Notes: generated by a model from the letters alone, not told the origin. Positions 37,765 to 59,161 are shown, numbered from the stretch's first letter. The stretch is DNA of 64,000 nucleotides from Candidatus Saccharimonadales bacterium (GCA_035700225.1 DASSOT010000003.1:111-64110), one strand, 5' to 3'. Numbers and translations are program-made.

Positions 37765-37802
37765 TTCTTTTTTCCTTTCGCTAAACGCTTTATCTTTAGC
37801 CT

Positions 37803-38267: not shown

Positions 38268-38293
38268 GAATCGTCCTGATTTAACTATTTTCT

Positions 38294-38322: not shown

Positions 38323-38332
38323 TGAATTTTCC

Positions 38333-38743: not shown

Positions 38744-38761
38744 ATGCGTTTTGAACTCATT

Positions 38762-39971: not shown

Positions 39972-40546
39972 GTCTTAAACAAGCCTCCCGGTATCAGATA
40001 TTGCAATATGGAAAATGCGAAGATGTAGATAGCCAGGCCGATGACCGCATACTGGGCCCGCTGTTTGGCGCTTTGGCTGTTTTCGGGGTTGCCTTCAGCC
40101 ATACTGTATTGCAGGCCGGCGAGTATCAGCGAAACCGTTATGACAATACCGATTCCAACCGAAGCGAACCGGATAAGTGCAAACACCAGGTCTTGGATTG
40201 GCCCGAGGTTCGCCGGACCGTTTTTGCCCAGACAGCCGAAATTAAATTTGGTCTTGACGTTTCTGGACTGGTCGTCGAGATTGCCGCACTGGTAATTGCC
40301 TTTCTGGCCAGCGCCCTCTATGGTGAATTTGTTTATCACATCGGCTTTACAGCCACCGGGGTCATCGCTGTCGGCACAATTATCGAATGCTTTCTTGCAT
40401 TTGTCGGCATCATAAATAAAGTCGCCATTACAGTCCGACCTTCTGGCGGCGGCGTCCGTCTTAGCAGACAAGAACAATACTGGCGCAACAAACACCATTA
40501 GAAAGAAACTTGTCAGGACTATTTTCTTTACGGCTAAGGTTTGCAT
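39968..40546 (-). CDS. VirB2/TrbC-like T4SS pilin paralog 9 (largest, Cys-rich ectodomain); first gene of the pilin operon
   Basis: 192 aa; signal peptide, 8 cysteines in the ectodomain, C-terminus VGIGIVITVSLILAGLQYSMAEGNPENSQSAKQRAQYAVIGLAIYIFAFSILQYLIP. Confidence 0.5.
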   Translation of the reverse strand: MQTLAVKKIVLTSFFLMVFVAPVLFLSAKTDAAARRSDCNGDFIYDADKCKKAFDNCADSDDPGGCKADVINKFTIEGAGQKGNYQCGNLDDQSRNVKTKFNFGCLGKNGPANLGPIQDLVFALIRFASVGIGIVITVSLILAGLQYSMAEGNPENSQSAKQRAQYAVIGLAIYIFAFSILQYLIPGGLFKT

Positions 40547-40684
40547 GGTTTATTTGTTTTTAGTGGTCGTTACAGCTTAATTATGACCTTTATGTTTATG
40601 TTTAGCAAGCTGGCACGGGTATTTATTTAGGTATCGACTTTTTAGCTTAAGTGTTTTATGCTCATTAAAGAAGAGTAGTCTTCC

Positions 40685-42019
40685 TTGATTATTCATCGTC
40701 AAAAACATAAAAAGAACATGAACAAAAAAATAACAAAAAGTCTGTTTGGCCGAGCTTCTGTCATGTTGCTCGCTTTTGTTTTTTTTGGTTCTATTCTTAC
40801 TTCGCTGTTTTTCTTCTCCCCCCCTGTAGCCGCCGACAATAGCGGTACAGGTACGTTTGAGTACAAAGACATACACAATGAAACCATAATAGAGGTCAGG
40901 GGCGGTGATACGCAGGAATATCATAAAAGCACCGGCGGCAATGGCGTATACAACGGCGGGGGTGCTGAAGGTTTTGACGGGTGTACGGCCTGGATTCAGA
41001 CCAACAGCCATAAATACGACGGTGATACGCATGCCAAATGGTGGGCCGGGTGTCTAGGCGGGCCCGACAAAACTCCTACCGAGCCGGGTAAAAAATCCAT
41101 CACCATAAAGGCGGCACACAACTATACCGGGGACTGGATAGACCATAGCCACATAAAAGTCGGCGGCACCATTTATTACGACAACCACATAGACGACACG
41201 CTCGATTTCAAAGCTACAAACCAGAATAATGGTTGTGATACGAACGTCATTAACGGCTTTCCTGAGTCCGACGGGGGTGACATAACCAACGCCCCGGCCG
41301 CCGAGATAACCATTAACAAGCCTGTCAGCGCAACCAACAATAACTGCGTTCAGACTAAGCACCCCGTATATTTCAATAACACACAAAATTTTGCAATCTA
41401 TTTCATGTGGGTGGACGCAGGAACCATACAGACCTCCGATAGGACAGCCATGGTTTACGTGCAGAACGGCGGGGGCGGGCCTTATCTGGATAACGGTAGC
41501 GGGCGCAGTAGTGATTCCAGTTGTCTATCCCAGATAGTACCGGATAGCGTCGGCTCAAGACATGGAACCTTAATCCTGCGCAATAGCGACGGTAATCCTT
41601 TTTCAAGCGGATTCAGCCCGCAGATATCCGGCGTTGATTTTCATGATCACGGAGGGTGCAAAGTAAGTGACCCTTTGCGCGTGAACATAGGCGGTAATGT
41701 GAACGCATCGAAGCCGCCCGGTAGTGGAGATGCCGGCGGAGCCGATGCCGGAGATGCCGGCGGAAACATAACCGACTGCGATACCGAGCTCACCTCGCCA
41801 TTAAGCTGGATATTATGCCCGCTGATAGACATAGGCTCCAATGTTTCTGATTTTGTCTTCAACGACCTGGCCAAACCGTTGCTTAGCGACATACCTATAA
41901 GCACCAAGCGGGACAACGGCACCTACAGAGCCTGGCAAGGCTTCAGGTTTTTAGCTAACATCATGCTTATCGGGTCCATGCTGGCGATAGTTTACGCCCA
42001 AGCGAGGGGGGAGAAGTAA
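40685..42019 (+). CDS. secreted Gly/Asn-rich beta-type surface protein with C-terminal membrane anchor (possible pilus-associated protein or adhesin)
   Basis: Probable start MNKKITKSLFGRASVMLLAFVFF about 40718 (signal peptide). Low-complexity GGxG runs (GSGDAGGADAGDAGGN). C-terminal TM LANIMLIGSMLAIVYAQ. First gene of the plus-strand T4SS-like operon. Confidence 0.4.
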   Translation: MIIHRQKHKKNMNKKITKSLFGRASVMLLAFVFFGSILTSLFFFSPPVAADNSGTGTFEYKDIHNETIIEVRGGDTQEYHKSTGGNGVYNGGGAEGFDGCTAWIQTNSHKYDGDTHAKWWAGCLGGPDKTPTEPGKKSITIKAAHNYTGDWIDHSHIKVGGTIYYDNHIDDTLDFKATNQNNGCDTNVINGFPESDGGDITNAPAAEITINKPVSATNNNCVQTKHPVYFNNTQNFAIYFMWVDAGTIQTSDRTAMVYVQNGGGGPYLDNGSGRSSDSSCLSQIVPDSVGSRHGTLILRNSDGNPFSSGFSPQISGVDFHDHGGCKVSDPLRVNIGGNVNASKPPGSGDAGGADAGDAGGNITDCDTELTSPLSWILCPLIDIGSNVSDFVFNDLAKPLLSDIPISTKRDNGTYRAWQGFRFLANIMLIGSMLAIVYAQARGEK

Positions 42020-43947
42020 TGTTAGACTCCTATACAATTAGAAAAATAGTCCCGCGCCTGGCCCTGGCCGTAATCGGTGTGAACCTGTCCATATATCTCT
42101 GCCTGGCGGCGGTTGACGTCACAAATATCATCGGAGGCGGTTTGGGCGACCTTATACGCACGCCCTTCGTGGACAGCGGCAGTTTCGGCAGTATCGGTAT
42201 AGAGAAAAACGCGCTCAATGGCATCGTCGGTGCCGTCGGGGCCGGGTTGATGGCGGCCATAGTTACTGCCGTCGTAGCGCTGGGGTTGACAGCTTCATTC
42301 ATAATAGTCGGCCTCGGTATGTTGCTTTTGGCCAGTGCTGTCGTCGTACTTGTCGCGATAGCTGTTCTGGCCACGCTCGTACTCAGATACGGTGCGATAA
42401 TCTTCCTAAGCATAGTTTCACCGATAGCCATCGCTTGCCTGGTCCTGCCGGGAACAGAAAAATACTTTAAGACCTGGTGGGATTTTTACCTTAAAACGCT
42501 GATTGTCTATCCTATCATCGCGGCTATATTCGCCATCTCCGATGTCTTGGGGGCAATATTCTTAAGCACCCAGGCCTCCGTAAATAACCTGAGCAGTCTG
42601 GTTTCCATATTCGTCGTGCTGGCGGCCATGTACGCGCCTCTTTTCATGATTCCGTTTTCATTCAAGATGGCCGGCGGGTTCCTGGGCAACTTCTACGACT
42701 TCCTTAACACACAAGGGGTCAACCGGGTGCGCGAAAAGCTCAACAAATGGAAAGAAGACCCGGAAAGCTGGTACGCCCAGAACAAGCAACGCCTGCATGA
42801 CCAAAAATATGAAAAAGGTTTCACGGCCAAGCAGATAGCCAGCGGTACGATAGCCGGTGGAAGAAGCTTCATGAGAGGCCAGGGGTTTAGAGCCGCTTAC
42901 GGCGGTAAGTCCAGGGCACTCGGCGCGCAGAAGATACTCGCCGCCGCTAAACAGGCTCAGGAGCGCGAAATCATGGCAACAATCCAGGGCGATGACGATA
43001 TCGGTGAAGCCCTTTATGCAGGTGGTAGCCGGCAGGAAATAGCCAATGCTTTAATGAAGGCGAACTCAACCCGCTTCGGCGACATAAATGACCCTTCCAA
43101 GCATACTGCCGAGCAGTTGAGAGAGCGCGAGGAAGCCATAGCGCTGGTGCAAAGCGCTCAGGGCATGATGGGCAACAGCGTACGAAAGTTTGTTGCCGGA
43201 CACGAAATAGCAAGCTCTACCACCGGCTTCAACAAGGCCGGCGGCGTAGAGCTATTCCAAAAAGCCCAAGGCGTGGGCGATTCCGAAATGCTCAGGATGC
43301 GCTCGATGATAGACATGAAAGGCGAGCAGAAGAAGTTAAACCGTCTGGATTCCGGCGGGTACAGTACATCCAAGGCTCTTAACCTGAGGAAAGAATACGC
43401 CGCCGGTACCGGCGACTTTGCCGGTCTTAACCAGGCGCAAAGGGACACTTTACTGGAAGAGAAACTGCTTGATTCCGCTATCGAAAAGAACAGCCCGTCG
43501 GCGCTGGCCACCATGGACCACAATGGTATGAAGCGCGTGTCCCAGCGTATAGGCCATAGGCTTAACCAAGCCCGCATGATCGAGGATCCTGAAGAGCGCG
43601 CCAAAGCAATCGAGCTGGAAACTGCCCATTTAGCCGCCTTGCGCGATGCACTTAACTACGCCTCCAACGAAAACCGCACTGACTTGGTAGACGATGTTTA
43701 CTCCACTTCTGTCGAAGGAATGTCTATACAAGTCAAGAAAAGGGACGAGCTTGGTAATGTCATGAAGGATGCAGAGGGCAATGAAATTATGGAAACCAGA
43801 GCGCCGAACGTAAGAGAGCTTGTACAGTTAATGGATTCTGGCAAAGGTCTATTTAGCACCTATGATGACGCCCACAGGGGCTATGGTTCTAGTGAATTGG
43901 ATGAGCGGCACAGGATGGACGATATTATGCGACCTCCGGGTGGATAA
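42019..43947 (+). CDS. VirB6/TrbL-like polytopic T4SS channel protein with long C-terminal soluble extension
   Basis: About 6 TM helices in the first 230 aa, then a 400-aa hydrophilic domain. Start ATG overlaps the upstream stop (TAATG). Topology and position match VirB6-like proteins of Gram-positive T4SS. Confidence 0.5.
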   Translation: MLDSYTIRKIVPRLALAVIGVNLSIYLCLAAVDVTNIIGGGLGDLIRTPFVDSGSFGSIGIEKNALNGIVGAVGAGLMAAIVTAVVALGLTASFIIVGLGMLLLASAVVVLVAIAVLATLVLRYGAIIFLSIVSPIAIACLVLPGTEKYFKTWWDFYLKTLIVYPIIAAIFAISDVLGAIFLSTQASVNNLSSLVSIFVVLAAMYAPLFMIPFSFKMAGGFLGNFYDFLNTQGVNRVREKLNKWKEDPESWYAQNKQRLHDQKYEKGFTAKQIASGTIAGGRSFMRGQGFRAAYGGKSRALGAQKILAAAKQAQEREIMATIQGDDDIGEALYAGGSRQEIANALMKANSTRFGDINDPSKHTAEQLREREEAIALVQSAQGMMGNSVRKFVAGHEIASSTTGFNKAGGVELFQKAQGVGDSEMLRMRSMIDMKGEQKKLNRLDSGGYSTSKALNLRKEYAAGTGDFAGLNQAQRDTLLEEKLLDSAIEKNSPSALATMDHNGMKRVSQRIGHRLNQARMIEDPEERAKAIELETAHLAALRDALNYASNENRTDLVDDVYSTSVEGMSIQVKKRDELGNVMKDAEGNEIMETRAPNVRELVQLMDSGKGLFSTYDDAHRGYGSSELDERHRMDDIMRPPGG

Positions 43948-43995
43948 GACATATCCTTATTTGACAAAATAACAAAAATATAAAATTATAACAAT

Positions 43996-46464
43996 ATGAC
44001 CGAAGCACTAAAAGACAGAGCAGTAGACGCCGCCACAGATTACGTAGTCGACAGGCCTGTCACGGGAGGTTCGGACGGTTATGCGCATCACCACCATGGG
44101 CCTCAGCCTTTGGATTGGCCGGTTGAAACTCCAGCCGACGTATATGACGATAGGGAACCTTTGGGTGATGAATTTGAAGTTCCCAGTTCGGTGTCCGGGG
44201 GCGAGGTTGGCAGATATGCCGAAGAGTCGCAACAGGGCGGGATAGTCAGAAAATCACTCGGAAAGGTCGCTACGCGCTTCTTAAAGCGCGGCGAAGGTTA
44301 TGAAAAGCTGGCCAAGGCCAGACGCGACATACCGGGCGCATTGCACCAGCACGAAGGCGCAGACGCCGCCCCGCCGATTGATGCGCCGCCGCGGGACTAT
44401 AGGCGATGGGAAAGGGCGCGACGAAAGGATGCAAAAAATACCTTGCGTCATAACGACATCATCCAGGACCGACATGTCCTAATTGATCGAAGCCACTCTA
44501 CGCAAGGGTTGCGTTCGGGCAAGATGGTCCGAAACCGCATAACATGGCAAAAACGACAGAACGCCCTAGCGGAAGCGGCCAGTCAAGAGCCTAGCTATGG
44601 CTTTATATTTACGAAAGACGGAAGAAAAGTACCCACCATTTTTACCCCAACCTACCAGGAGCCTTTACTCGATCAGGACGACCATCTGCCCAAAGAAGAA
44701 CAGGCACGCATAGCGGCAGAAAACAAAAGGATAAAAGCAGAGAATAAGGCACGTCTTAAGACAACAGCTGGCAGACACGAAAAGCTGGGGAAGCTGGTAA
44801 AGGGTCTCGACCCTGACAAACCTATTGACGTTAATAATCCTCTGGATGTAAGAAGCGTACCGATTAACAATGAAGCCGCGACCCTGACTTCTGATGAAGC
44901 CGCAGAAGTTGAAACCGTAATGATGAACAGTGTTAATCCCGACCTAAAAAGGCAAGTAGATGCCGGCGTCCTCACTCGCGCAGAGGCAAAAAAGAAAGCT
45001 TCAGAAATAAGGGGCGTGATTGAAAACAGGCTACTAGTTACACGCTCTATGAAGCCTGATATCGAAAAAAAGGTTAAAAAAGAAGTTGATGACGACATAC
45101 GCGCGGGGACGGTAGCACCGGCAGACGCGGAAAAAGAAGTCAAAAAAAGAACCAACAAAGCAATCAAACAGGAACTGAGGCAAAGCCGCAGGAAAAAGAC
45201 AAAAGCTGGAAAGAAAATAAGGGACGACCGCGAGAAAGTCGAACAAATCAAATACTGGATGGGCCGGGCCGCCGAAGACTATGAAGAAACAAGCAATCCG
45301 AGCCCTATACCGGACCTGGACAACCCGGACCAGGCGATTGACCGCATAAATAACCGTACGCCTAACTGGGGCGGCAACCGGGCTAATGAAGCCAAGCAAC
45401 TGCGCAAATGGATGCGCTTGAACCGGGAATCACATCGCATACGCGAAAGACAGGAAGCCGTTTCCGAAGGCAGGGATTGGACCGGGCGCAGGTTCAAAAG
45501 GCAGTCAAAACGAAGGCGCAACGCCGCCAGCAAGATAGTCGGCGCCCAGAAAAACAGCGCCAGGGCCAGGACCAGGATAGGCGAAACCAGTGAGCAGGTA
45601 AAAGACAAAGCCCGATACAAGGCCCAGAGAGCTTCCATAAAAGCGCTGGGCAAAGCAACTGAAGCCTCCAGAAAAGTGCGCGGCAAGTTCGGCGAAATGG
45701 CCCACAAGATACACATGCGCGATTATGACAATACCAAGCTAAGCAAAAAGGCCGAGGAATTACGCACTCGTAGTTACAGGGATGCGCGACTGAAGGTACG
45801 CGCCGACAACCTATGGCTGAAAGACTATGGCGACACCCGCCTTGCTAGGCTAGGCCGTAAAAAGCCGAAGCTTCAGAAAGTCGCGGACAAACAACGGCAG
45901 TTCGGCGAGTTTCGAGCCAAGAAACTGGACAAGCTGGCTGACAGGCAGGAGCAGTTCGGCAGGTTCCGCGGCAAACAGGTCAAAAAAGCCGCTAAAGGCC
46001 AGGAAAAATTTGCAGACTATAGGCGCAAGAAATACAGGGGCGGCGCCATAAAGGCCGGCGAAGTAGCCGCTGAGTTTGACGCGCGCCGGCAACAGACCAA
46101 AACCCGAAAGAAAATAGCCGACAGAATCAGCAGAAGACGGGCGGTAGAAAGACGCGAGCGCCGACAGGGCGATGCCCACGATCAAGAATTCAGGGTAAGG
46201 GATAGAAGAAACCGTAACAAGGGCCATATAGACAAGATGGCTACCGACCAGAAGAAACTCAGGGAAGGTTTCGTCAAAGGATTCCCCGCCGACCGGGTTG
46301 AAGCTTTTGACGAACAGGTTGAGCGCCTGCGAGAGAGGATGGTTCAGGACTTTCAAGATACCCGCGGTAGAGACCCCTATCCGACTGAAGGCGCCCGTCT
46401 GCTTTATAGGGCTACGCAAGGAGCCATCCGGGCTACACGCGCTAGCGGTTCCACCGGCCCTTAG
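43996..46464 (+). CDS. 822-aa highly basic (K/R/E-rich), low-complexity cytoplasmic protein of unknown function
   Basis: No TM, no NTPase motifs. The C-terminal 500 aa are periodic K/R-rich helical repeats (RKKxx, RxxRR). Embedded between VirB6-like and VirB3/VirB4-like genes. Confidence 0.4.
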   Translation: MTEALKDRAVDAATDYVVDRPVTGGSDGYAHHHHGPQPLDWPVETPADVYDDREPLGDEFEVPSSVSGGEVGRYAEESQQGGIVRKSLGKVATRFLKRGEGYEKLAKARRDIPGALHQHEGADAAPPIDAPPRDYRRWERARRKDAKNTLRHNDIIQDRHVLIDRSHSTQGLRSGKMVRNRITWQKRQNALAEAASQEPSYGFIFTKDGRKVPTIFTPTYQEPLLDQDDHLPKEEQARIAAENKRIKAENKARLKTTAGRHEKLGKLVKGLDPDKPIDVNNPLDVRSVPINNEAATLTSDEAAEVETVMMNSVNPDLKRQVDAGVLTRAEAKKKASEIRGVIENRLLVTRSMKPDIEKKVKKEVDDDIRAGTVAPADAEKEVKKRTNKAIKQELRQSRRKKTKAGKKIRDDREKVEQIKYWMGRAAEDYEETSNPSPIPDLDNPDQAIDRINNRTPNWGGNRANEAKQLRKWMRLNRESHRIRERQEAVSEGRDWTGRRFKRQSKRRRNAASKIVGAQKNSARARTRIGETSEQVKDKARYKAQRASIKALGKATEASRKVRGKFGEMAHKIHMRDYDNTKLSKKAEELRTRSYRDARLKVRADNLWLKDYGDTRLARLGRKKPKLQKVADKQRQFGEFRAKKLDKLADRQEQFGRFRGKQVKKAAKGQEKFADYRRKKYRGGAIKAGEVAAEFDARRQQTKTRKKIADRISRRRAVERRERRQGDAHDQEFRVRDRRNRNKGHIDKMATDQKKLREGFVKGFPADRVEAFDEQVERLRERMVQDFQDTRGRDPYPTEGARLLYRATQGAIRATRASGSTGP

Positions 46465-46521
46465 CCGTTTTTCCTGGTTGAGCTTGTTAAAATACTAATG
46501 GTAAACTGTTAAACAGTTCCT

Positions 46522-47526
46522 ATGGCAACATACAAAGTAATCCAGGACATAGAGGCCGAAGATAAGTTCGTAGGCCCGCTGACGCTGAAACAATTCGTTT
46601 TTGCTATGTTCGGCGCGCTTTTTGCATATCTGTCGTTCTTCGTACTTACCAAAGGCCTGGCATGGGGTCTAATAGCCACTATGCCGCCTTCTCTTTTCGG
46701 ATTTTTCATGGCCGTGCCGTGGAGTAGTGAACAACCTACGGATATATGGGTGCTGGCAAAGATACGTTTCAGACTGAAACCAAAAAAACGCATCTGGGAC
46801 CAAAGCGGCATGCAGGAGCTTGTGACCATAACCGCCCCCAAGAAGGAAGAAAAGCCCCTGACCAAAAATATGTCGCAGGCCGAAGTAAAAAGCCGGCTGA
46901 AGGCACTGGCCGAAACGATTGACAGTCGAGGCTGGATTATCAAGGATTCCCCGGATAGTTTCGTGGCCGAAGAAGCTAGCGACCGCTTGATAGACCCGGG
47001 CATAATGCCGAGGCAGGTGCCTGACGTTGATATGGCCGCCATACCGGATATGCTTGAGGAAGAGCACGGTCTGGACAGCATGATTCAGCAGAGCGATGAG
47101 GCCAGAAAAGCCCAACTTATGGAAAAGATGAACCGTATCAGGCAGGGCGAGTCCGTAATTGCCACCGAGGAGCCGGAGCCCGTCGTTTCCCCGCCTGACG
47201 AAAACACTGAAAACGCGCTTGATGAAGCGGTTTTGAGCGCCAGCCTGAGAGCAAAGAAGCAGGCCGGAGATATATCAAGAGGCAACATGCATGCCATACC
47301 GGCCAGCCAGCCAGTAGCGCAGACAAGCCAGCCTGCGGGACAGGATGAAGGTGCAGAGGAAGCGGAGCAAACAGAGGTAGAAAAAGCACAAGCGTCTGTG
47401 ACAGAACAGAGAAGGCCTGATATACTGGACTTAGCCCGGAACAACGATCTGAACGTATCAACTATTGCGAGGCAAGCCAGCAATAAAGACAAAGGTCCGG
47501 ATGAAGTCGTTATTGCCCTTCACTAG
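46522..47526 (+). CDS. PrgI/VirB3-like two-TM T4SS protein with acidic C-terminal extension
   Basis: N-terminus IQDIEAEDKFVGPLTLKQFVFAMFGALFAYLSFFVL...GLIATMPPSLFGFFMAV gives two TM helices. Position is immediately upstream of VirB4, as in Gram-positive conjugation systems (PrgI, ConD). Confidence 0.5.
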   Translation: MATYKVIQDIEAEDKFVGPLTLKQFVFAMFGALFAYLSFFVLTKGLAWGLIATMPPSLFGFFMAVPWSSEQPTDIWVLAKIRFRLKPKKRIWDQSGMQELVTITAPKKEEKPLTKNMSQAEVKSRLKALAETIDSRGWIIKDSPDSFVAEEASDRLIDPGIMPRQVPDVDMAAIPDMLEEEHGLDSMIQQSDEARKAQLMEKMNRIRQGESVIATEEPEPVVSPPDENTENALDEAVLSASLRAKKQAGDISRGNMHAIPASQPVAQTSQPAGQDEGAEEAEQTEVEKAQASVTEQRRPDILDLARNNDLNVSTIARQASNKDKGPDEVVIALH

Positions 47527-47571
47527 GCCGGCTTCGCTTGAAAGATCAAAACATGAAAAGGGTGGAAAAGG

Positions 47572-48444
47572 ATGAATCCTTCCCAGCAAAATGCTAACGC
47601 TCAACCGAATATAAATTTACAGACACCCCAGCATTCAGGCGCTGAGGTTGTGCAGAATGCCCAGCCCGCGAACCCCGCCCAGCCCGCAGGACAGATTCCG
47701 GCAAAACCGGCAGTAAATACCAACAGCACCCAGAACAACCTTCAGATAGCCGAGATACGCGACGGTATAGTTATCATGAACGACGGTTCTTTCCGTTCCG
47801 TGGTCATGTTCAAGTCCATCAACTTTGATCTTATGAGCCCCGACGAGCGCGAAGGGGTCGAATATGCATACCAAAGCTTCTTGAACTCGCTTTATTTTCC
47901 TATACAGATATTCGTCCGTTCCGAAAAAGTCGACATGAGGCCGTACATGGAAAGATTACAGAAGATTCAGAACGAACATGACAACATGCTCCTGGCTATC
48001 CTGATGGACGATTACCTCGGTTATATAGAACAATTGTCGGCTCAGACCAACATAATGGACAAGCATTTCTATGTCGTCATACCCTTTTTGCCCAGCGAAT
48101 CCAAGGAACATACGCTTACATCCAGCAAAAATATATTGGATGGAGTGATAGGGCTTTTCAGCAAATCTCCGACACATGTGGTCATCAACGAAGCCAAGCT
48201 GGAAGAAGCCAAGACTGAACTGCGCAACCGAGTCCAGGCTGTGTTGAGCGGTCTGCTTGACTGCGGAGTTCAGGGCTTGCCGCTGGACACGGAAGAGCTT
48301 ATCGAGCTTTATTACGACACCTATAACCCCGACACGGCCACCAGACAACATCTGCAAAGGTTCAAGGATCTTTCTGCGCCGGTAGTAACCAAGGGCGAAG
48401 GGCAGGCGCCACAGCCCGACCTGGATAAGGAGCTCGAAACGTAG
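47572..48444 (+). CDS. VirB4 N-terminal domain encoded as a separate ORF
   Basis: IRDGIVIMNDGSFRSVVMFKSINFDLMSPDEREGVEYAYQSFLNSLYFPIQIFVRSEKVD matches the conserved N-terminal domain pattern of VirB4/TrbE/ConE. Its stop overlaps the next ORF start (TAGTG). Confidence 0.6.
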   Translation: MNPSQQNANAQPNINLQTPQHSGAEVVQNAQPANPAQPAGQIPAKPAVNTNSTQNNLQIAEIRDGIVIMNDGSFRSVVMFKSINFDLMSPDEREGVEYAYQSFLNSLYFPIQIFVRSEKVDMRPYMERLQKIQNEHDNMLLAILMDDYLGYIEQLSAQTNIMDKHFYVVIPFLPSESKEHTLTSSKNILDGVIGLFSKSPTHVVINEAKLEEAKTELRNRVQAVLSGLLDCGVQGLPLDTEELIELYYDTYNPDTATRQHLQRFKDLSAPVVTKGEGQAPQPDLDKELET

Positions 48445-50357
48445 TGGGTATTTTTAAGAAAAAACAGACCGTCCCCTTGGATCCTGCCACAGCGGCGCAG
48501 GCGCAGAAAATGCGCGAAGAACAAGAGGTAGCCGCCGCCTTTCAAAAGGGCATAACGGCACTGCGCGATTTTATTGCTCCCAGCTCCATAGAGTACAGCG
48601 CTACGAGCTTTACCCTAGGCACCCGCTACGCCAGGAACTACTACGTATACGGTTACCCCCGACAGCTCTCGACCGGCTGGCTCAGCAGTATGGTAAATCT
48701 GGACGAGGTAATCGACCTTTCTTTGTACATTTATCCCGTGGAAAGCCAGGTAGTTCTGGAAAACCTGCGCAAAAAAGTGGCCCAGCTGGAAGCAGGCATA
48801 CAGATAGATATGGAAAAGGGCCGCGTGCGCGACCCGGGCAAGCAGAACGCCATCATGGATGCCGAAGAAATGCGCGACAAACTGCAGGTGGGCGAGGAGC
48901 GCTTTTTCCGCTTTGGGCTGTACTTTACCGTATACGGCTCGTCCATGGACGAGTTGGAATTTATATCACATAAGATTGAGTCCATTTTGGGGCAACAACT
49001 GGTCTATTCCAAACCCGCAAGCTCACAGCAGGAACAAGGCTTCAACAGCACAATCCCGCAATTTTTCGACCAGCTACAGATACGCAGGAACATGAACACC
49101 GGCGCAATAAGCACCAGCTTTCCGTTCACCAGTGCCGACTTAAGCCAGGAAGACGGAATCCTATACGGCATCAATATGCACAATTCCGGCCTGGTCATAT
49201 TTGACAGATTTACCCTGGAAAACGGCAATGCGGTAGTCTTTGCAAAGTCAGGCGCCGGCAAAAGCTTCGCCGTAAAGCTCGAGGCACTGCGTAGCTTGAT
49301 GCTCGGCACGGAAGTGTTCATAGTCGACCCGGAAAACGAATACCAGAGGATGTGCGAGGCTGTCGGCGGAGCTTATGTACGGCTCAGCCTGAACTCGGCT
49401 ACCCGCATAAATCCTTTTGATTTGCCGAAAGTGGTGGACTCCGATGAAGCCGACAGCGCACTTAGAAGCAATCTTATAACCCTTCACGGCCTGCTCAGGC
49501 TTATGATGGGCGGAGCGGCCTCTCAGGCCAGCGGCGGCGCCGTCGACGCGGTCCTGAACGCTTCGGAAGAAGCCGACCTGGATGCGGCACTGATAGAAAC
49601 CTACGCCAAAGCCGGTATCACCAACGACCCTCTCACGCACAACTCCGCTCCTCCTACCATTACAGATCTTTATGACACCTTGCTCCATATGGGCGGGAGC
49701 GGCCCTGAGCTGGCGCAAAGACTGCGTAAATACACATCGGGTACTTTTGCCGGCATATTCTCCCAACAGAGCAACATAAACATCGACAACCCGATGGTCG
49801 TATTCAATATCCGCGACCTGGAAGACGAACTGCGCCCGGTAGCCATGTACATAGTGCTTAATTACATCTGGAACAAGACCAAGAGTGACCAGAAACGTCG
49901 CCTGCTGGTGATAGACGAAGCATGGCAATTGATGAAATACGAGGACAGCGCCAGCTTTATGTTCTCTCTGGCTAAAAGAGCTCGAAAATACAATCTCGGT
50001 ATATCGACCATATCCCAGGACGTTGAAGATTTCATGGGTTCCCGCCTGGGGCGCGCCATAGTCGCCAACTCCTCTATGCAATTATTGCTCAAACAGTCGC
50101 CTTCGGCGGTTGACGTACTGGCAGATGTCTTCAAGCTCACCAGCGAAGAAAGAAAACGCCTGAGCGGCTTTCCGGTCGGCCAGGGCCTGTTTTTCGCCGG
50201 GCAGAACCATGTGCACATAAATATCCTGGCCAGTCCGACGGAACAGGGGCTTATCACTACCAATCCGGATGAGATTAAGCAGTTGGAACAGGCAGGCGAA
50301 CTGGCCGACGCGCAGGGAACCATTGATCTGGAGAACCGCTTGAGCCCGGGAATGTGA
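48444..50357 (+). CDS. VirB4-family T4SS ATPase (C-terminal NTPase module)
   Basis: Walker A VVFAKSGAGKSFAV; Walker B RRLLVIDEAWQLM; AAA-like and VirB4-CagE motifs (GISTISQDVEDF). GTG start at 48444. Confidence 0.8.
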   Translation: MGIFKKKQTVPLDPATAAQAQKMREEQEVAAAFQKGITALRDFIAPSSIEYSATSFTLGTRYARNYYVYGYPRQLSTGWLSSMVNLDEVIDLSLYIYPVESQVVLENLRKKVAQLEAGIQIDMEKGRVRDPGKQNAIMDAEEMRDKLQVGEERFFRFGLYFTVYGSSMDELEFISHKIESILGQQLVYSKPASSQQEQGFNSTIPQFFDQLQIRRNMNTGAISTSFPFTSADLSQEDGILYGINMHNSGLVIFDRFTLENGNAVVFAKSGAGKSFAVKLEALRSLMLGTEVFIVDPENEYQRMCEAVGGAYVRLSLNSATRINPFDLPKVVDSDEADSALRSNLITLHGLLRLMMGGAASQASGGAVDAVLNASEEADLDAALIETYAKAGITNDPLTHNSAPPTITDLYDTLLHMGGSGPELAQRLRKYTSGTFAGIFSQQSNINIDNPMVVFNIRDLEDELRPVAMYIVLNYIWNKTKSDQKRRLLVIDEAWQLMKYEDSASFMFSLAKRARKYNLGISTISQDVEDFMGSRLGRAIVANSSMQLLLKQSPSAVDVLADVFKLTSEERKRLSGFPVGQGLFFAGQNHVHINILASPTEQGLITTNPDEIKQLEQAGELADAQGTIDLENRLSPGM

Positions 50358-50385
50358 ACATTAGCAAAAACTGAAAGAACAAAAA

Positions 50386-53300
50386 ATGGCAGATGACCCC
50401 GCCGAAAAACCAGATGGAGTATACGACGAGCCCGGCGCGTCAGACCTGCAGGTACCTAGTGGGAGCGGCTATATGCCAAGGGGAGAAAAGCCGCGGCGCA
50501 CACCGCACGAACCGGTTTATGAAGATGATTCCGATGGCCAGGTAGCCCAAGCCGGTATGGGCCCTCCAGGGCAGGGCGGGGATGAACACGGCGGGCGCAG
50601 AAGACTGGGCTCCCCCAGCTGGGCCGACCGTATGCGCCAGCGCAGAAGCATGGCCAACCGGCGGCAAGGCCGGGGGCACGGTAGGAGCCGCGGCGACATC
50701 AACAACTCGGAAGAAAACGCCGAGGAACCGGCTCCAACCAGGGCTGACGACAAAGAAAGGTCGCAGGTCGGCGATGGTGGCGGCGAAGAAGACAAAGGCT
50801 CAAGCCTTTACAACCCTACAGATGCCGCTCTTCCGGCAAATGTCAGGATAGCCAAACAGCTGGCCAAGGCTTTCATGAGCAAAAAGGGCAGGAGAGGCAT
50901 GACCGCAGGCGGAGTCGTCGGGCTGGTATTCTTCCTTTTCAGCCTGGCGCACGGCCCGCTGGAAATAATCCACATAGGGATGCTGTTGCAAAAAGCCCAT
51001 TTCAGCAACCAGGAAGGCGTCGGCGACCTGACTATGAGCAGGCTTTACCGCTTCATCAGAAGTGGCGGCGATGTGGGCGAAACCCGCATAGGCTGGTACG
51101 AAAGCCGGGTGAAGAACAAAATGCTGGCAGATTTGAAGAAAATCGGCCTGGAGCCTGAATTCACAAGCGCCAGCAGTATTTATGAATCATTCAAGGTAGA
51201 CACTACCGACAGCAAAAGCCCTTATTACAACATGACTGAGGACGAACTAAGAACAGAGCTATCCAAAAAAGGCTACGATTTCGACGGTACGAGCGAAGTA
51301 TCCAAAGGAAAATACAGCGTAAAGCTGGGCAATGATTTTACAAGGAGAAAATCTCTCACGCTACTGGTCAAGGAAACCGGCAGGAAGGGCTTGTTCGCCT
51401 CTTTGAAGGCCCGTCCGTTAAAGAAATACGGCTGGGTGGATTGGCACCCTATACATCCTTTGGACCGCAAGGTCAACGACTCTATAGATAAGCTTTACAA
51501 GAATTGGAAGCAAAAGAGGGCTGAAAAAAGAGCCGGGCGGGGTAAGCCCGCGACCATCGACAGCACCAATGCCAAAGAACAGACGGTAGACGCCGACGGA
51601 AACACCGTAGATAATCCTATAGCCGATGGTAGCGTACAAACCGTGGACGACACGAGCAAAAGCGCCCAATTGATACAGGATCTGAAAACCAGTAGCGGGC
51701 TTAAGATTACCGGAGGCGTTGCCGCCGCGGCGGGTGTTGCCTGCGCGGTAAAGGAAATAAATGATAATTACAGCCTCATACAATACCTGGACTTCATCAA
51801 ACCCGTCATACAGATAGGTATGGACGCCGTTACCATCGCAAACCAGGCTATGAGCGGAGTGGGCGGTATAGACCTGTTGCAAGCTGGTTTTGTTGCACGC
51901 GATTTTCTGCAAAAAGACAAGGACACAGGCAAGGTCGTGTCCTCTTGGGATGAGGCAAAGACATTCCGTGCGGGAGAGGGCAAAAAAGGCGGTAAGGACC
52001 TGGACAAACGCACCAAGGAAGAGTTTTCAAAAGGGGCGCCCTGGTGGATAAACTGGACAGGCAAAGACCCGGCAAAAGGTGTGCTCAAGCCTTTGTGCTC
52101 AACAGCCGGAACAATTGCTACCGGCGCCATCAGCGTCGGGATTGATGTAATCACCGGCCACAGCGTTTCTACGCTCGCTAACCTTGTAGGGAGCTATTTT
52201 GCCGGACCGGTAATAATAGACAAGATTAGCCATCTCCTGGTCGGGGATGCGCTTGATTTGGACAATGTAGCCGGTGCAACATGGGGCAATCTGGCCAATT
52301 ACGGGACGCGTTTTGCGGCCAACGGCATGGCTCTTTTGGACGGCGGGGTGAAATTGACGCATTTGGATGAGATTGCCCTGAACAACGAACGCTTGCAGGA
52401 TGAACAGCAGGAATTCAACAACCGTAGTTTCGCATATAGAATGTTTAACCCCTACGACACTCGCTCTCTGGCATCCGCCGTCATAGACGATACGCCGGCC
52501 CTGTCGATGAACAACCTTTCCAGCGTATTCCAAAGCTTCCCGAGCCTGTTTTCGTCCGCCTTCAAGTTCCCCTCCGGCTTGTTATCCGGTACTGTTTCGG
52601 CACAACGCTTTACTGCCCCGCCCTATGACTATCCCTTTCCCTCCATAGGCTTCAGCATAGAAGATCGCGACAACAGCAAAGTGATAGACCCGATAGAAAA
52701 TGACCATAAGGTCGCCAAGATACTTGATAACAACGGAGAAGGCGGCAATCCGGACTACATAGAGCGCGCAAAGGAATGCTTCAACGTCGATATAAAGAAG
52801 GAAAGCGCTGGCGGATGGAACGCAACTCCCGGGGAGAATGACGACGAGTTCTTCAGCAAACTCTATACGGATGAATACCCCGACGGCTGTACTGACAAAA
52901 GCCTCGAGTGGATACGGGTAAGGAGTTTCATTCTGCAGGTACAGACCATGAAGGCCTACGCCTGTTGGGCGGATGACGAAGAAGCTTGTGCCGAGCTTGG
53001 CTACAACGATAGCTCTGTAACTGGCGGCGGCTCTCCGGGCGTTTTACCGAGCGGCTCCGCGCAGGCATTAGCTGGCCAGCTAATCGGTTTCATAAACAGC
53101 GGCAAGATTTCCTGCAACGGCCAGGCTAGCGACTGTCCTGATATCAAAAATACAGCCAACGGCACCAGCATAAAAGGCGGGGCCTGTAACGTCGATGCGC
53201 TGGACGCAAAGCTTTTGGGGATGATGCTGGAGCTCGCCCAGATGGGACATACGTTCGTGTTCTCGGCTCTTTGTACTGATCATCCCAGCAATCCGGCCAG

Positions 53301-53550
53301 CTATCATCATCTCGGCAAAGCGGCTGACTTTAACTATATCGATGGTGTTTTCATGGGGCCTAGTGACTCGGCCTGGACGGGCGAAAAGCTCAGCGTAGGC
53401 AAGAAACTTGACCAAGATGTGGCGTCCTTTATGCCTAAGAGTACCGGCTTTGGCCAGGAAGGTGGCAGATGCCACCCACATTTTAATTTCCTGGACGGCT
53501 TCGACACCTTTGACGACGCCTGCCACCATCAACACATACAAGTGGAGTAG
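50386..53550 (+). CDS. 1054-aa bitopic protein: disordered cytoplasmic N-terminus, single TM, large extracytoplasmic region ending in an M15/LAS-type zinc metallopeptidase (cell-wall hydrolase) domain
   Basis: TM GMTAGGVVGLVFFLFSLA at about aa 170. C-terminal SYHHLGKAADF (SxHxxGxAxD) plus a downstream HPH (HxH) zinc-ligand pair typical of VanY/M15 peptidases. Confidence 0.6.
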   Translation: MADDPAEKPDGVYDEPGASDLQVPSGSGYMPRGEKPRRTPHEPVYEDDSDGQVAQAGMGPPGQGGDEHGGRRRLGSPSWADRMRQRRSMANRRQGRGHGRSRGDINNSEENAEEPAPTRADDKERSQVGDGGGEEDKGSSLYNPTDAALPANVRIAKQLAKAFMSKKGRRGMTAGGVVGLVFFLFSLAHGPLEIIHIGMLLQKAHFSNQEGVGDLTMSRLYRFIRSGGDVGETRIGWYESRVKNKMLADLKKIGLEPEFTSASSIYESFKVDTTDSKSPYYNMTEDELRTELSKKGYDFDGTSEVSKGKYSVKLGNDFTRRKSLTLLVKETGRKGLFASLKARPLKKYGWVDWHPIHPLDRKVNDSIDKLYKNWKQKRAEKRAGRGKPATIDSTNAKEQTVDADGNTVDNPIADGSVQTVDDTSKSAQLIQDLKTSSGLKITGGVAAAAGVACAVKEINDNYSLIQYLDFIKPVIQIGMDAVTIANQAMSGVGGIDLLQAGFVARDFLQKDKDTGKVVSSWDEAKTFRAGEGKKGGKDLDKRTKEEFSKGAPWWINWTGKDPAKGVLKPLCSTAGTIATGAISVGIDVITGHSVSTLANLVGSYFAGPVIIDKISHLLVGDALDLDNVAGATWGNLANYGTRFAANGMALLDGGVKLTHLDEIALNNERLQDEQQEFNNRSFAYRMFNPYDTRSLASAVIDDTPALSMNNLSSVFQSFPSLFSSAFKFPSGLLSGTVSAQRFTAPPYDYPFPSIGFSIEDRDNSKVIDPIENDHKVAKILDNNGEGGNPDYIERAKECFNVDIKKESAGGWNATPGENDDEFFSKLYTDEYPDGCTDKSLEWIRVRSFILQVQTMKAYACWADDEEACAELGYNDSSVTGGGSPGVLPSGSAQALAGQLIGFINSGKISCNGQASDCPDIKNTANGTSIKGGACNVDALDAKLLGMMLELAQMGHTFVFSALCTDHPSNPASYHHLGKAADFNYIDGVFMGPSDSAWTGEKLSVGKKLDQDVASFMPKSTGFGQEGGRCHPHFNFLDGFDTFDDACHHQHIQVE

Positions 53551-53552
53551 TC

Positions 53553-55913
53553 ATGTTAAATAGAATTCTTCTCGCAATAGCCGCACTCTTCCTTACATCT
53601 TATACGATTATTGTCCCCCAGGTAGCAAGAGCTCTTCCGGCCGCACAGAAACAACTTTTTGGCAAAAACATAAGGTATTTTGATCTTGGGTGCGATACCA
53701 CGGGCACAACTCCAGCCACTGGGGGCGCCACTGACCTAGACGGTAAAAAAGTGTACATGGTGGGAGATTCTATAACCGAAATAACGACGCCTCAATTGGA
53801 ACAAGCATTCAAAGACGCAGGTGCTAACCCAACGGTGGACGGTGTGGGTGGTGCCGCAATAGTACCCGAGAATACGCCCGACACTATTTTGAGCGGAGTG
53901 GAAATAGTAGAGAAGGATAAGGCAACCATCAGAGATGCGGGAGTCATTGTCGTAGCTCTGGGCACCAACGAATATCCGGACGTCTTTGAAGAACACTTAA
54001 AAGAACTATTCAACAAGATCAGGAATATTAACGAGTCATCACCTATATATTGGGTTAATACCTTTACTTCGGATGACGGTGGCGGCAACCCGGCCTATAC
54101 CACGGCTGGGGCCGAAAAGAAAAACAAGATAATAGACAAGCAGTCTACCAGACTGGGCTTTAACGTAGTAGATGTAAAATCGGCCAATATTAAAACCACT
54201 GACGGTATCCACCCGTTTAACGATAAAGAAAAATATGCCAAGACTGTGGTTGACGGTGTTTCTGGTGGTGCACCATCAGGAGGGGGTGGTGGGGGGGGCG
54301 GTTCAGGGCCTTCTTCGGTAACGGCCGGAAACATACCTGCGGAAGGAAAAGATGTGGGTGCTACTGAGTATACCGGAAGTACCGGATACAGAGGAGATGA
54401 CCTGACCACTACTTATGCTTATGCTGAGTTGGTGCCCGGAGGTCACGGTACAGCAACCGAAGATACTGCTAAAGCTATGGGCGGGCTAAAATATAAGCAA
54501 AAACTTGCCATAACTCTTAATGGCAAAACTGTAGTTGCGCAAAAACTTGATATTGGCCTTGGCGGGGGACCGATAAACGGCCACGACAGGGCAATAGATC
54601 TGCACTTTGACAAGACCGCGTCTTCACTTGGGATTTCCAGCCCTGCAAGCTGGGCCGGTGTTGTCCATGTCCAGGCTGTTTCGGACAGCACCCCTCTTGG
54701 ACCCACAGACACAATACCTACCGCCGAACCGCCTGCCGCAGGCGCCGGCGGTTCTTGCTCCTGCCCGGCCGGTGGCGAGGGGTTAGACACTACGCTTACC
54801 GGTAGCGACCATGTTGAACAAGCATACAATTTCTTTGTCGGCAAGGGGCTTACCCCTTTGCAGTCGTCGATAATAGTCGGTGTAATAATGGAAGAGTCCG
54901 GTCACGAGCTTGATACCACCGCAACAAACCCTTCTACCGGGGCTTACGGTATTGCCCAGTGGACAAACCCTCCCTACAGCAACAGATTGCCAGAACTAAA
55001 AGATTTTGCGCGCTCCCAAGGAAAGCCTGCCAGCGATTTTGCCACACAGCTTAATTTTATGTGGAAAGAGCTTACGGGGGGCTATACAAGTACTTTGAAT
55101 AAGTTAAAGAGCGTGAGTTCGCCAAGCGAATTGGATCAGGCGGTTTATGATTTTGAGGCTACTTATGAAGTTTCTGGCCATCAGCTTATACCCGAAAGAC
55201 AAGATAATGCTCGGTTCGTGTTCAGCCACTATGGCGGCGGGGTGGCGGGACCTGGCGGGGGAAGCGTGACCATAGACGGCGGGGGAAGCTGTAGCGAGCC
55301 TTCGGTTGAGGATGCTAACCTGAGCAAAACCATCACAGTGAGCACTAAGGGTAAATTTATCACGTTGCCAAGTAAATATTCGTGCCCCGGTCGTACAACT
55401 GTAATAGATTCGCGCGTGGCTCCAGGTCTTGCATATTTATTAACCAAATATGATATGTGTGCCGCTGATGGATTAGCGGACGGACATAAAAGCCATGGAG
55501 CCGGGATTTCCGTTGACCTTGCACCAAAAAGTGGAAATTCCAAAGAGGTATGGAAAAATTCAACAGAGGCCGCGGCACGAGCTATCGGCTGGTTTGGCGA
55601 CGGTGCTACAGATCCTATAGGGTCACAACACGGCTGTGCTTTCTACGACGGGGGTTATGGCCAGTGTATGCACATAATACATCCGGATAAAATTCCTAAG
55701 TGGGTGCGCTGGATCGGCTATAACGGAGATATCGACCATGGCGACCCCTGGCATTGCCAAAGTAACGGCGGGTCTTGTTATCCGCACTTGCACATCAGCT
55801 GGGACTCACCTAATGGGGATGCGACCTCGGCAACGTCAATACCGGAGCCAATACCTGAAGTTTATACATTTCCTGCCCCTGTTCCTGATGATTTGAGGGG
55901 GTTGTTGGAGTGA
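53553..55913 (+). CDS. 786-aa secreted multi-domain cell-wall hydrolase: SGNH/GDSL esterase, RlpA/3D-like barrel, SLT-like lytic transglycosylase and C-terminal LAS-like metallopeptidase motifs
   Basis: Signal peptide. KVYMVGDSITE (SGNH block I). Poly-Gly linker GGGGGGGGSG. IVGVIMEESGHE...GAYGIAQWT (SLT catalytic Glu plus GxxQ). HKSHGAGISVDL...HLHISW (HxxGxSxD...HxH). Confidence 0.6.
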   Translation: MLNRILLAIAALFLTSYTIIVPQVARALPAAQKQLFGKNIRYFDLGCDTTGTTPATGGATDLDGKKVYMVGDSITEITTPQLEQAFKDAGANPTVDGVGGAAIVPENTPDTILSGVEIVEKDKATIRDAGVIVVALGTNEYPDVFEEHLKELFNKIRNINESSPIYWVNTFTSDDGGGNPAYTTAGAEKKNKIIDKQSTRLGFNVVDVKSANIKTTDGIHPFNDKEKYAKTVVDGVSGGAPSGGGGGGGGSGPSSVTAGNIPAEGKDVGATEYTGSTGYRGDDLTTTYAYAELVPGGHGTATEDTAKAMGGLKYKQKLAITLNGKTVVAQKLDIGLGGGPINGHDRAIDLHFDKTASSLGISSPASWAGVVHVQAVSDSTPLGPTDTIPTAEPPAAGAGGSCSCPAGGEGLDTTLTGSDHVEQAYNFFVGKGLTPLQSSIIVGVIMEESGHELDTTATNPSTGAYGIAQWTNPPYSNRLPELKDFARSQGKPASDFATQLNFMWKELTGGYTSTLNKLKSVSSPSELDQAVYDFEATYEVSGHQLIPERQDNARFVFSHYGGGVAGPGGGSVTIDGGGSCSEPSVEDANLSKTITVSTKGKFITLPSKYSCPGRTTVIDSRVAPGLAYLLTKYDMCAADGLADGHKSHGAGISVDLAPKSGNSKEVWKNSTEAAARAIGWFGDGATDPIGSQHGCAFYDGGYGQCMHIIHPDKIPKWVRWIGYNGDIDHGDPWHCQSNGGSCYPHLHISWDSPNGDATSATSIPEPIPEVYTFPAPVPDDLRGLLE

Positions 55914-55967
55914 TTATGAACATGGCTCTCAGTACTAGGTGTAGAATAAAAAAGAACAGCGAACTAT

Positions 55968-57386
55968 ATGGTAAATGAAAATACTAACTGGCGGAAAATT
56001 GTAGCACTCTTTGTCTCGGCTACCGTGATATTCCTGGTTATAATATGGGTCAATAAGTCCTTAACTACAGGCCAAATAACCGCCACATCCGATAATTCGG
56101 AGAATCGCTTAAAGATAGAAAGGATTTTAGAAAATAATCAAGATAAGCCTTTTTCCGCGGAGGGGCAGGGGAAACTTACGGTTCACGTCAAGCCGGGAAG
56201 GTACAATGTGTCTGTTTATAGTGAGTCTGGTGTATATGGTTCCAGCCAAGTAGTCCGGATAAAAGCGCGGGAGAAAAAAAGCGTCGTGCTGAACTCGATA
56301 CAGCCCTCAGAAACAGAGCCGGTTTATGGCCAGGAAGTTGTTGGTGTAACCGTTAACGATACGAGTCTTATGTTCTTGGATTCCCTTACCCAGAAACTCA
56401 AGGAAGTTGGCCCAGACAATAAGCTCAACGATATGTTCCCGGGTACGAAAATAGAAGATATTTCTTGGGCCAAGCCGGGCCTCGGTGTTGCGCTGGGTGC
56501 AAAGAACAGCCTCTTTTTGATAAGGTCTGGTTCGATTAAACCGATTAACCCGCCCTTTTCTATAGAAAAGGGGGCCGCGGTTAGCTTAAAAATGATTGAC
56601 AAAAAGCATGTTTATTTAAGCATTGGCCGCGATATTTACTCTGGCCAGGCAAGCGGCAACTTTAAGAAAATATATACCGCCAGCGCTAGCGCGTTACAGA
56701 TTACGGCTAGTCGCGAAGCCCTGGCCGTTATAGAGTTTGGCAGAAACGAAGGGGCTAATTCTTTCCTTGTTATATCAAAAGGTGGCAAAAAAATTGCAAG
56801 TAAGGACATTGATGCTAGAAACTCTGCCTGGTCTCCAGACGGTAAACGACTCTTAATCAGCGAGGCGGGGAAAGTGGGCGTATATGATAATTCCTTGAAT
56901 CAACTTTCCTCAGTACCTTCGAATAAATCTTCCGCTCTTGCATGGATGGACAGAGACTCCTTTTTATATGGTTACGGTAACCAACTTATGATCTACAATC
57001 TCACCAACCAAAAATCACACCAGTTAGCCCTCGTGCCTGGCCGAGGAGCTATCACGGGGATTTATCCGGACGAGAATAGGTCTTATATATATTTTTCTAC
57101 TCAGGCAACAGCAGTGGATGGAAGCGAAAGAGATCGTCTTTATAGGGTGGGGCTAAAAGGCCAAGAAAGGCCTGATTATCTGGCTGGTTTTAGCATATTT
57201 ATGCCTGAACATCTGGATTATTGTTACCTTGATTATATAAACTTCAAAAAACCGACGATATTAATAAGTTATCCTTCCGCGGAATCCGCCCGGGTCTGTC
57301 GCATAGCCGCGGAAACGGAGTTAAAAAACTATAATATCAGCCCTGCAAGGGTTGAGTTCCAGTTCTTTCCATACTACGGCGATTGA
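55968..57386 (+). CDS. membrane-anchored PD40/TolB-like beta-propeller protein
   Basis: N-terminal TM (IVALFVSATVIFLVIIWV) and PD40 repeat signature NSAWSPDGKRLLIS. Confidence 0.45.
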   Translation: MVNENTNWRKIVALFVSATVIFLVIIWVNKSLTTGQITATSDNSENRLKIERILENNQDKPFSAEGQGKLTVHVKPGRYNVSVYSESGVYGSSQVVRIKAREKKSVVLNSIQPSETEPVYGQEVVGVTVNDTSLMFLDSLTQKLKEVGPDNKLNDMFPGTKIEDISWAKPGLGVALGAKNSLFLIRSGSIKPINPPFSIEKGAAVSLKMIDKKHVYLSIGRDIYSGQASGNFKKIYTASASALQITASREALAVIEFGRNEGANSFLVISKGGKKIASKDIDARNSAWSPDGKRLLISEAGKVGVYDNSLNQLSSVPSNKSSALAWMDRDSFLYGYGNQLMIYNLTNQKSHQLALVPGRGAITGIYPDENRSYIYFSTQATAVDGSERDRLYRVGLKGQERPDYLAGFSIFMPEHLDYCYLDYINFKKPTILISYPSAESARVCRIAAETELKNYNISPARVEFQFFPYYGD

Positions 57387-57444
57387 CGGCCTCTTGATTA
57401 TTTTGGTAATTTATGGTAATATATCTATATTCTAGGAGTTTTGT

Positions 57445-59141: not shown

Positions 59142-59161
59142 GCGGTGTTATTATCCCACGC

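Follow-up and report, generated by a model that had tools for sequence, protein, structure and literature searches.

The stretch of DNA analysed here (DASSOT010000003.1:111-64110, called the window in the following) consists of 64 kb of a Candidatus Saccharimonadales metagenome-assembled genome and carries two divergent operons whose products resemble components of a type IV secretion system (T4SS). The T4SS unit spans positions 36417-58083 and is composed of a minus-strand pilin operon and a plus-strand apparatus operon of ~17 kb. The latter (40718-58083) has ten genes, named A to J, which are spaced by 0-58 nt with two 1-nt overlaps. It ends against the convergent gene recF, beyond which lie dnaN, dnaA and yidC. 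On the opposite side, beyond the pilin array, are found an Hsp20 gene and a gene coding a ComFC-like protein (35028-35702, Pribosyltran domain and zinc ribbon). The features of the locus are as follows (aa, amino acids):

36417-40546, minus strand: nine tandem VirB2-like pilin paralogs (PF18895, alignment)
36417-36872, 36881-37318, 37336-37764, 37803-38267 and 38333-38743, minus strand: pilins 1 to 5
38762-39175, 39172-39591, 39588-39971 and 39968-40546, minus strand: pilins 6 to 9
40547-40717, no strand: AT-rich divergent intergenic region with the presumed promoters (direct reading)
40718-42019, plus strand: gene A, secreted Gly/Asn-rich ectodomain protein (433 aa; 444 aa if started at TTG 40685)
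42019-43947, plus strand: gene B, VirB6-like polytopic protein (642 aa; orthologues, model)
43996-46464, plus strand: gene C, orphan, very basic soluble protein (822 aa)
46522-47526, plus strand: gene D, PrgI/VirB3-like membrane anchor (334 aa; PF12666)
47572-48444, plus strand: gene E, TrsD/TraD-like free-standing VirB4 amino-terminal domain (290 aa; NCBIfam)
48444-50357, plus strand: gene F, VirB4 ATPase, the motor (637 aa; NF045971)
50386-53550, plus strand: gene G, membrane-anchored envelope protein, putative wall hydrolase in the VirB1 role (1054 aa; motif, orthologues)
53553-55913, plus strand: gene H, secreted multi-domain wall hydrolase (786 aa; PF18013)
55968-57386, plus strand: gene I, membrane-anchored envelope protein (472 aa; position)
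57445-58083, plus strand: gene J, putative lipoprotein, last before recF (212 aa; position)
58080-61926, minus strand: recF, dnaN and dnaA, flanking markers of the origin region (Pfam)

A promoter scan of the divergent region gave hits at chance level and most terminator-like sites are on the antisense strand; no regulatory sites are therefore claimed.

The first-pass annotation of this DNA had bounded the locus at 40685-55913. The unit extends beyond these limits on both sides, the 822-aa open reading frame (ORF) at 43996-46464 had been omitted, and gene A probably starts at ATG 40718 and not at TTG 40685. The parts that it named (Gly-rich protein, VirB6-like protein, PrgI/VirB3 protein, VirB4 in two ORFs, pilins) are all present at or close to where it placed them, and Pfam identifies each of the three genes recF, dnaN and dnaA that it had placed 2 kb from the locus.

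Components of the secretion apparatus

Relatives of the VirB4 protein were collected by a scan of species-representative genomes that gave 543 confirmed stretches, in more than 500 genomes of Saccharimonadales. The best 80 of the 543 all belong to Saccharibacteria/Saccharimonadales and are 79-90% identical. Gene layout was compared in 82 related loci, to which two more (L083 and L084) were added later through look-ups with gene C.

The motor is coded by two adjacent genes. Gene F scores 352 bits against NCBIfam NF045971, the CD1110-type VirB4 family (cut-off 325), has matches to Pfam P-loop_TraG and AAA_10, and is related to the VirB4 of PDB entry 4ag5 (E 1.7e-48). The Walker A (GAGKS) and Walker B (LLVIDEAW) motifs are readable in its translation. 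Its profile score and its identity to relatives place gene F in the class of MPF_FATA-related (CD1110-like) VirB4 proteins, as predicted from sequence. Gene E matches NCBIfam TrsD/TraD (E 1.8e-7), below the full-length cut-off of this family; its orthologues carry the PF26593 TraC-like domain, and with E itself neither Pfam at E <= 1 nor a PDB sequence search returned a match. Because gene E covers positions 11-119 of the CD1110 VirB4 profile and gene F positions 182-732, E and F are read together as one full VirB4. The division in two ORFs is taken as the native state since nearly all VirB4 homologues among the matches listed have 634-645 aa and since a TrsD-like gene precedes virB4 in 81 of the 82 related loci (median identity 67%). 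A frameshift artefact was considered as the origin of the split and rejected because independent assemblies share it. Directly upstream of the TrsD-like gene in 77 of these loci lies prgI, represented in the window by gene D (Pfam PF12666, E 1.1e-11, 45.6 bits, cut-off 27), whose product features a long acidic carboxyl-terminal tail.

Genes A and B form the VirB6 unit. The gene A product has a signal peptide and one carboxyl-terminal membrane helix (hydrophobic segments at residues 19 and 420), and a Pfam search at E <= 1 gave weak sub-cut-off matches only. The stop codon of A overlaps the start of B at 42019. Gene B itself does not pass the TrbL/VirB6 profile (E 0.87), but four of its homologues pass the cut-off and TrbL is matched by 10 of 44 orthologues. 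The AlphaFold2 model of the gene B protein, built with 59 homologues (predicted local distance difference test, pLDDT, 87.8), features an amino-terminal helical membrane bundle (roughly residues 1-246) and a carboxyl-terminal alpha-solenoid (roughly residues 250-560) that is probably cytoplasmic. A profile of gene B orthologues yielded nothing significant among PDB sequences. The assignment of the gene B product as VirB6-like is supported by the homologues, the orthologues and the predicted fold. In 26 loci one ORF of 800-1300 aa runs without a break from the carboxyl-terminal part of A into the beginning of B, and in 10 loci, among which are the closest relatives of the window, the two are separate. 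Most of 30 further loci that have a match to B and none to A carry a long amino-terminal extension on the same ORF. Examples of fused VirB6 are found in loci L005 (3809-6943), L007 (1618-5469) and L073 (1582-5328). Because A and B are one ORF in most relatives, the secreted Gly-rich protein A is interpreted as the extracellular domain of an extended VirB6 that has become a separate protein. For this split too a frameshift artefact was rejected, as it is shared by independent assemblies. Some fused VirB6 orthologues carry at their extreme carboxyl terminus a Peptidase_S74 domain, the self-cleaving intramolecular chaperone of endosialidases (L050 3125-6832, residues 1160-1208; L082 3802-7125, residues 1031-1079).

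The divergent operon codes for the pilins. Eight of the nine paralogs match PF18895 (T4SS_pilin) at 28.8-60.6 bits (cut-off 26.6) and the ninth reaches 22 bits; weaker TrbC/VirB2 matches are found in six. A signal peptide is present in most of them, and the alignment reveals a conserved Cys as well as a carboxyl-terminal two-helix hairpin. Identity to the first paralog is 19-52%, the DNA repeat period is 455-464 nt, and equivalent arrays are present in the relatives.

Two large envelope proteins are encoded downstream of virB4. Gene G has no Pfam match even at E <= 1 and no match among PDB sequences. Its carboxyl-terminal end reads SYHHLGKAADF...HHQH, an SxHxxGxAxD / HxH arrangement that we take to be the VanY/LAS peptidase pattern. 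Among 42 positional orthologues of G, VanY is found in 13, Amidase_2 in 3, CHAP in 1 and GDSL in 2. The motif and these orthologues suggest that G is a membrane-anchored cell-wall hydrolase in the VirB1 role. Its counterpart in Southlakia epibionticum ML1 is annotated with a Hedgehog/DD-peptidase fold (PMC10633639). The gene H protein matches Phage_lysozyme2 (PF18013, E 3.4e-23, residues 421-558) and has the carboxyl-terminal motifs SHGAGISVD and HLH; GDSL and Peptidase_M23 domains are additionally found in its close orthologues. Against PDB sequences H gave chance-level matches only (E >= 0.05). Wall hydrolases are thus found downstream of virB4, H by profile and G by motif and orthologues. 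The first-pass annotation had seen in them two giant peptidoglycan-remodelling enzymes, a description that stands for H and is softer for G. Its proposal of a VirB2/3/4/6 plus VirB1 core agrees with the monoderm-type T4SS core and wall hydrolases described above; among the individual assignments, VirB4 and VirB3 pass NF045971 and PF12666, while for VirB6 it is homologues of gene B, and not B itself, that pass TrbL.

The operon is closed by two smaller genes. Gene I has weak PD40, beta-propeller and transthyretin-like matches, all below cut-off, and homologues at the same position in 7 loci. Gene J shows a signal and Cys (AGC) in its translation; it has no homologue in the 82 loci and no Pfam match at E <= 1, and its position suggests that it belongs to the operon. 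One or two genes precede recF at the position of I and J in all relatives, and those of S. epibionticum are essential (PMC10633639). Genes H and I (53553-57386) have a G+C content at third codon positions of 0.46, compared to 0.57-0.62 in the other operon genes and in housekeeping genes, which may reflect a faster turnover or exchange of envelope genes.

Conservation and variation among related loci

The 82 loci share the layout of the window: a minus-strand pilin array, the A/B unit, a variable stretch, prgI, the TrsD-like gene and virB4, followed by genes coding a 900-1300-aa protein, a 400-1000-aa protein and one or two small proteins, and then recF, dnaN and dnaA. Downstream, recF could be located in 68 loci and dnaA in 55; in the other loci they are missed because of contig ends and the 10-kb limit of the flanks. 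Median identity across loci is 82% for VirB4 (F), 67% for DnaA, 63% for DnaN and 50% for RecF. VirB4 thus outranks DnaA in conservation, while the envelope-facing operon proteins are at 27-53% (pilins 35-53%, B 32%, H 31%, G 27%). The combination of a conserved motor with envelope parts of low identity supports a host-facing role.

The variable stretch between the VirB6-like gene and prgI behaves as a hypervariable slot. One to three extra ORFs occupy it in 27 of 65 related loci. Nearly all of the 32 slot ORFs lack a membrane helix; about half code for very basic proteins and the rest for acidic ones, and no similarity among them was detected at E 1e-5. In the window the slot is filled by gene C. 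Its 822-aa product has a pI of 10.2, a net charge of +66, no Cys and no membrane helix, and found no family match in Pfam (also searched at E <= 1) or NCBIfam. Protein C matches itself only among 5.8 billion word-indexed proteins, and has four homologues among 1.84 billion representative proteins. One of these (L084 7427-9661) occupies this slot in a further T4SS locus of Saccharimonadales. When a profile of the C family was run against the slot proteins of other loci, no relative turned up. Protein C could be a nucleic-acid-binding partner of the system, and might attach to VirB4 and to the alpha-solenoid tail of VirB6 so as to feed or receive RNA, DNA or protein where epibiont and host touch. 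The broader idea that the slot encodes lineage-specific soluble proteins which are the cargo of the system, or stand-ins for the missing coupling protein, is a long shot. The slot offers a place to look for candidate substrates or adaptors and, together with protein C, provides the sole leads judged worth following.

No family match to a relaxase, a VirD4/TcpA coupling protein, VirB11 or an integrase was found in ORFs of at least 243 aa in the window; for VirD4 the absence holds for these 64 kb. Around the locus no direct repeats other than the pilin paralogs were found, and nothing resembling att sites brackets it. The GC content is 0.512 in the locus and 0.523 in its flanks. Relative synonymous codon usage of the locus correlates with that of the housekeeping genes at r = 0.91, compared to 0.97 between two halves of the housekeeping set. 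The unit is considered core and not mobile because its layout and position are the same in relatives, its composition is like that of the flanks and no repeats bracket it. The first-pass annotation had reached the same view of a core locus devoid of these four conjugation and integration functions.

The neighbouring dnaA fits an origin location. The window contains 15 DnaA-box-like 9-mers that come close to TTATCCACA, and seven of them flank dnaA, at 60312-60466 and 61954-62078. The total count of such 9-mers is not above chance, so that only their clustering counts as evidence for the replication origin (oriC). This distribution fits a predicted oriC in the intergenic regions beside dnaA. Transcription of the apparatus operon proceeds toward dnaA and would meet replication forks from this putative origin head-on, an orientation also found in S. 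epibionticum.

Relation to known systems and proposed role

The cluster is already known as a kind: its composition, its order, its missing conjugation genes and its origin-proximal position are published. A conserved T4SS region with VirB4, VirB6 and PrgI was described in TM7x and most Saccharibacteria, with an array of 4-6 small proteins with Sec signals and a comF/gntX gene (McLean 2020, PMC7427843). In S. epibionticum ML1 the cluster SEML1_0006-0019 was found by transposon sequencing to be essential for growth on the host; from SEML1_0004 to 0020 every gene is essential except 0012 (Wang 2023, PMC10633639). That T4SS is nearest to Gram-positive conjugative T4SSs, has its pilin genes inside the cluster and lacks recognisable coupling or relaxase proteins. 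Its gene order is dnaA, dnaN, recF, two small exported proteins, a lysozyme-type hydrolase, a 1113-aa protein with DD-peptidase fold, VirB4, a 293-aa protein, PrgI, two VirB6-like proteins, six pilins, Hsp20 and comF (PMC10633639). The order and flanks of the S. epibionticum genes (SEML1_0004/0006-0019) are thus those of the window read in the opposite direction. The differences lie in the pilins (six compared to nine), in the domain sets of the hydrolases and in VirB6, which in S. epibionticum is represented by two proteins of ~1000-1090 aa next to a non-essential gene with a TAT signal, and in the window is split into A (433 aa) and B (642 aa) followed by the orphan C. The requirement for epibiotic growth was demonstrated in S. 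epibionticum ML1 only.

A survey of Patescibacteria (Quinonero-Coronel 2025, PMC12102498) places their VirB4 clade as sister to MPF_FATA with TrsD as the commonest partner. It reports PrgI-type VirB3, VirB6, VirB2 arrays of 2-11 genes with ~25% mean identity, and rare relaxases. The position of the T4SS near dnaA and dnaN is read there as a gene-dosage effect, and an ancient transfer from conjugative elements is inferred. The system of the window differs from the Patescibacteria clade in nothing in kind; as far as the survey was read, it contains no description of the A/B split of VirB6 or of the slot before prgI. In a 2025 review the system figures as a new T4SS subtype and member of the superfamily (PMC12857230).

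Other systems that resemble it are the conjugative MPF_FATA systems of monoderms (TrsC/D/E/G of pGO1, CD1110 of CTn2, PrgH/I/J/K of pCF10). They share with the window the CD1110-type VirB4, a TrsD-like partner, PrgI, a VirB6-like channel and large multi-domain wall hydrolases. Unlike them, the system of the window is accompanied by neither relaxase nor coupling protein within the 64 kb, has VirB2-like pilins, which MPF_FATA systems lack, and is chromosomal, core and, in the relative studied, essential. The absence of a coupling protein is shared with effector T4SSs such as Bordetella Ptl and Brucella VirB, and McLean likened the array of small Sec-signal proteins to ptx/ptl (PMC7427843). These systems are however from diderms and have VirB7/9/10 and VirB11, and the small proteins of the window are pilins of VirB2 type, not toxin subunits.

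The locus is very probably the core chromosomal T4SS of Saccharimonadales, orthologous to the T4SSs of S. epibionticum ML1 and TM7x, with a role at the contact between epibiont and host. In this system hexamers of VirB4, with its detached amino-terminal domain, would dock on PrgI and on the VirB6 bundle and energise assembly, while Sec-exported pilins would polymerise to form a pilus or conduit. The hydrolases G and H would act on the peptidoglycan of the epibiont, and perhaps on that of the host, to open the wall, and A (the detached VirB6 ectodomain), I and J would sit in the envelope. The apparatus would act at the site of host contact, moving proteins or other macromolecules and not conjugating DNA. 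The conserved motor set against fast-diverging surface parts would fit adaptation to particular hosts.

Several points weigh against this interpretation. No VirB8-like component was identified. Genes B and G pass no profile cut-off, their roles resting on structure, orthologues and motifs. The model of the nine pilin paralogs is of low confidence (pLDDT 61.5) and a fold search with it gave generic helical hairpins only. The window covers 64 kb, so that a distant coupling protein or relaxase is possible; remote VirD4 homologues are common in Patescibacteria, and the homologues of the type IV coupling protein (T4CP) lie mostly far from virB4 (PMC12102498).

Other explanations of the same genes can be weighed against this T4SS of host contact. 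A machine for DNA uptake or import, comparable to H. pylori ComB or archaeal Ced, would combine a VirB4-family ATPase with the lack of relaxase and coupling protein, as seen in the window. The comFC gene just beyond the pilin array, also present in TM7x and S. epibionticum, would suit such a function, and gene F has weak matches to CedB (E 1e-14) and CedD (E 1.6e-5). These matches are nevertheless far from their family cut-offs (53.7 bits for 700 and 23.8 bits for 600, respectively). In S. epibionticum, moreover, deletion of comEC abolishes transformation and leaves cells viable while the T4SS is essential, and competence is ascribed to type IV pili and ComEC (PMC12857230), all of which makes the DNA-import function very unlikely. 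The apparatus might instead be an attachment organelle only, serving through its pilus and surface proteins to keep the epibiont fixed to its host with nothing being translocated. The nine divergent pilins and the variable ectodomain protein suggest recognition of the host surface, no substrate receptor (T4CP) is recognisable, and a preprint describes tubular structures, possibly T4SS pili, at the interface between another member of the Patescibacteria and its host. Adhesion of Saccharibacteria has however already been attributed to type IV pili (PMC12857230, PMC12102498). Furthermore, VirB4 appears catalytically intact by sequence, retains its 82% identity across the order and is kept together with a VirB6 channel; yet pilus assembly by itself also requires VirB4. 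Attachment without translocation is judged unlikely.

The derivation of CD1110-type VirB4, TrsD and PrgI from monoderm conjugative elements, and the ancient transfer inferred by the survey mentioned above, could also point to an integrative conjugative element that is now decayed or cryptic after loss of relaxase, coupling protein and integrase. Such decay is hard to reconcile with a position and order that are constant in 82 species-level genomes, with a VirB4 more conserved than DnaA, with the lack of an integrase match, of att repeats and of a compositional shift, and with the essentiality of the orthologue. This origin is highly improbable.

The reading as a non-conjugative apparatus of an episymbiont, already put forward in the first-pass annotation, is sound. 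Its suggestion that gene set and order might be undescribed does not hold, the same cluster being found in PMC10633639, PMC7427843 and PMC12102498. The T4SS of Patescibacteria is the first to be shown essential for the bacterium that carries it, and pairs a monoderm-type machine with VirB2-like pilins. The window adds one orthologous copy of this published cluster and its useful part is comparative. Three minor points seem unreported, namely the VirB6 that is either split in A and B or fused, the hypervariable slot, and the conservation of VirB4 above that of DnaA. The Peptidase_S74 domain of some fused VirB6 orthologues and the head-on orientation of the operon also seem to be new, again as minor points.

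Other features of the window

The rest of the window codes for housekeeping functions (GroEL, Mur ligase, ValRS, TsaD, PGI, TrpA, TrpB, DHPS, AroB and ABC transporters). A thiamine pyrophosphate riboswitch (34887-34999, minus strand; Rfam RF00059, 58.2 bits) is located upstream of genes coding an NMT1/THI5-like binding protein and an ABC transporter (32373-34917, minus strand), which probably serve uptake of a thiamine precursor. The tryptophan synthase beta-type enzyme dependent on pyridoxal phosphate (5455-6942, minus strand), coded beside trpA (4525-5256), has an amino-terminal Trp_repressor domain (E 2e-7), an unusual fusion. At 18859-19746 (minus strand) an HTH_3 DNA-binding domain is fused to a HAD-family hydrolase domain. 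Three tRNA-Ser genes (CGA, TGA, GCT) and one tRNA-Arg gene (GCG) are grouped within 7 kb (23208-23297, 23800-23889, 29351-29427 and 30119-30211); three of the four are reported by Rfam at the gathering threshold.

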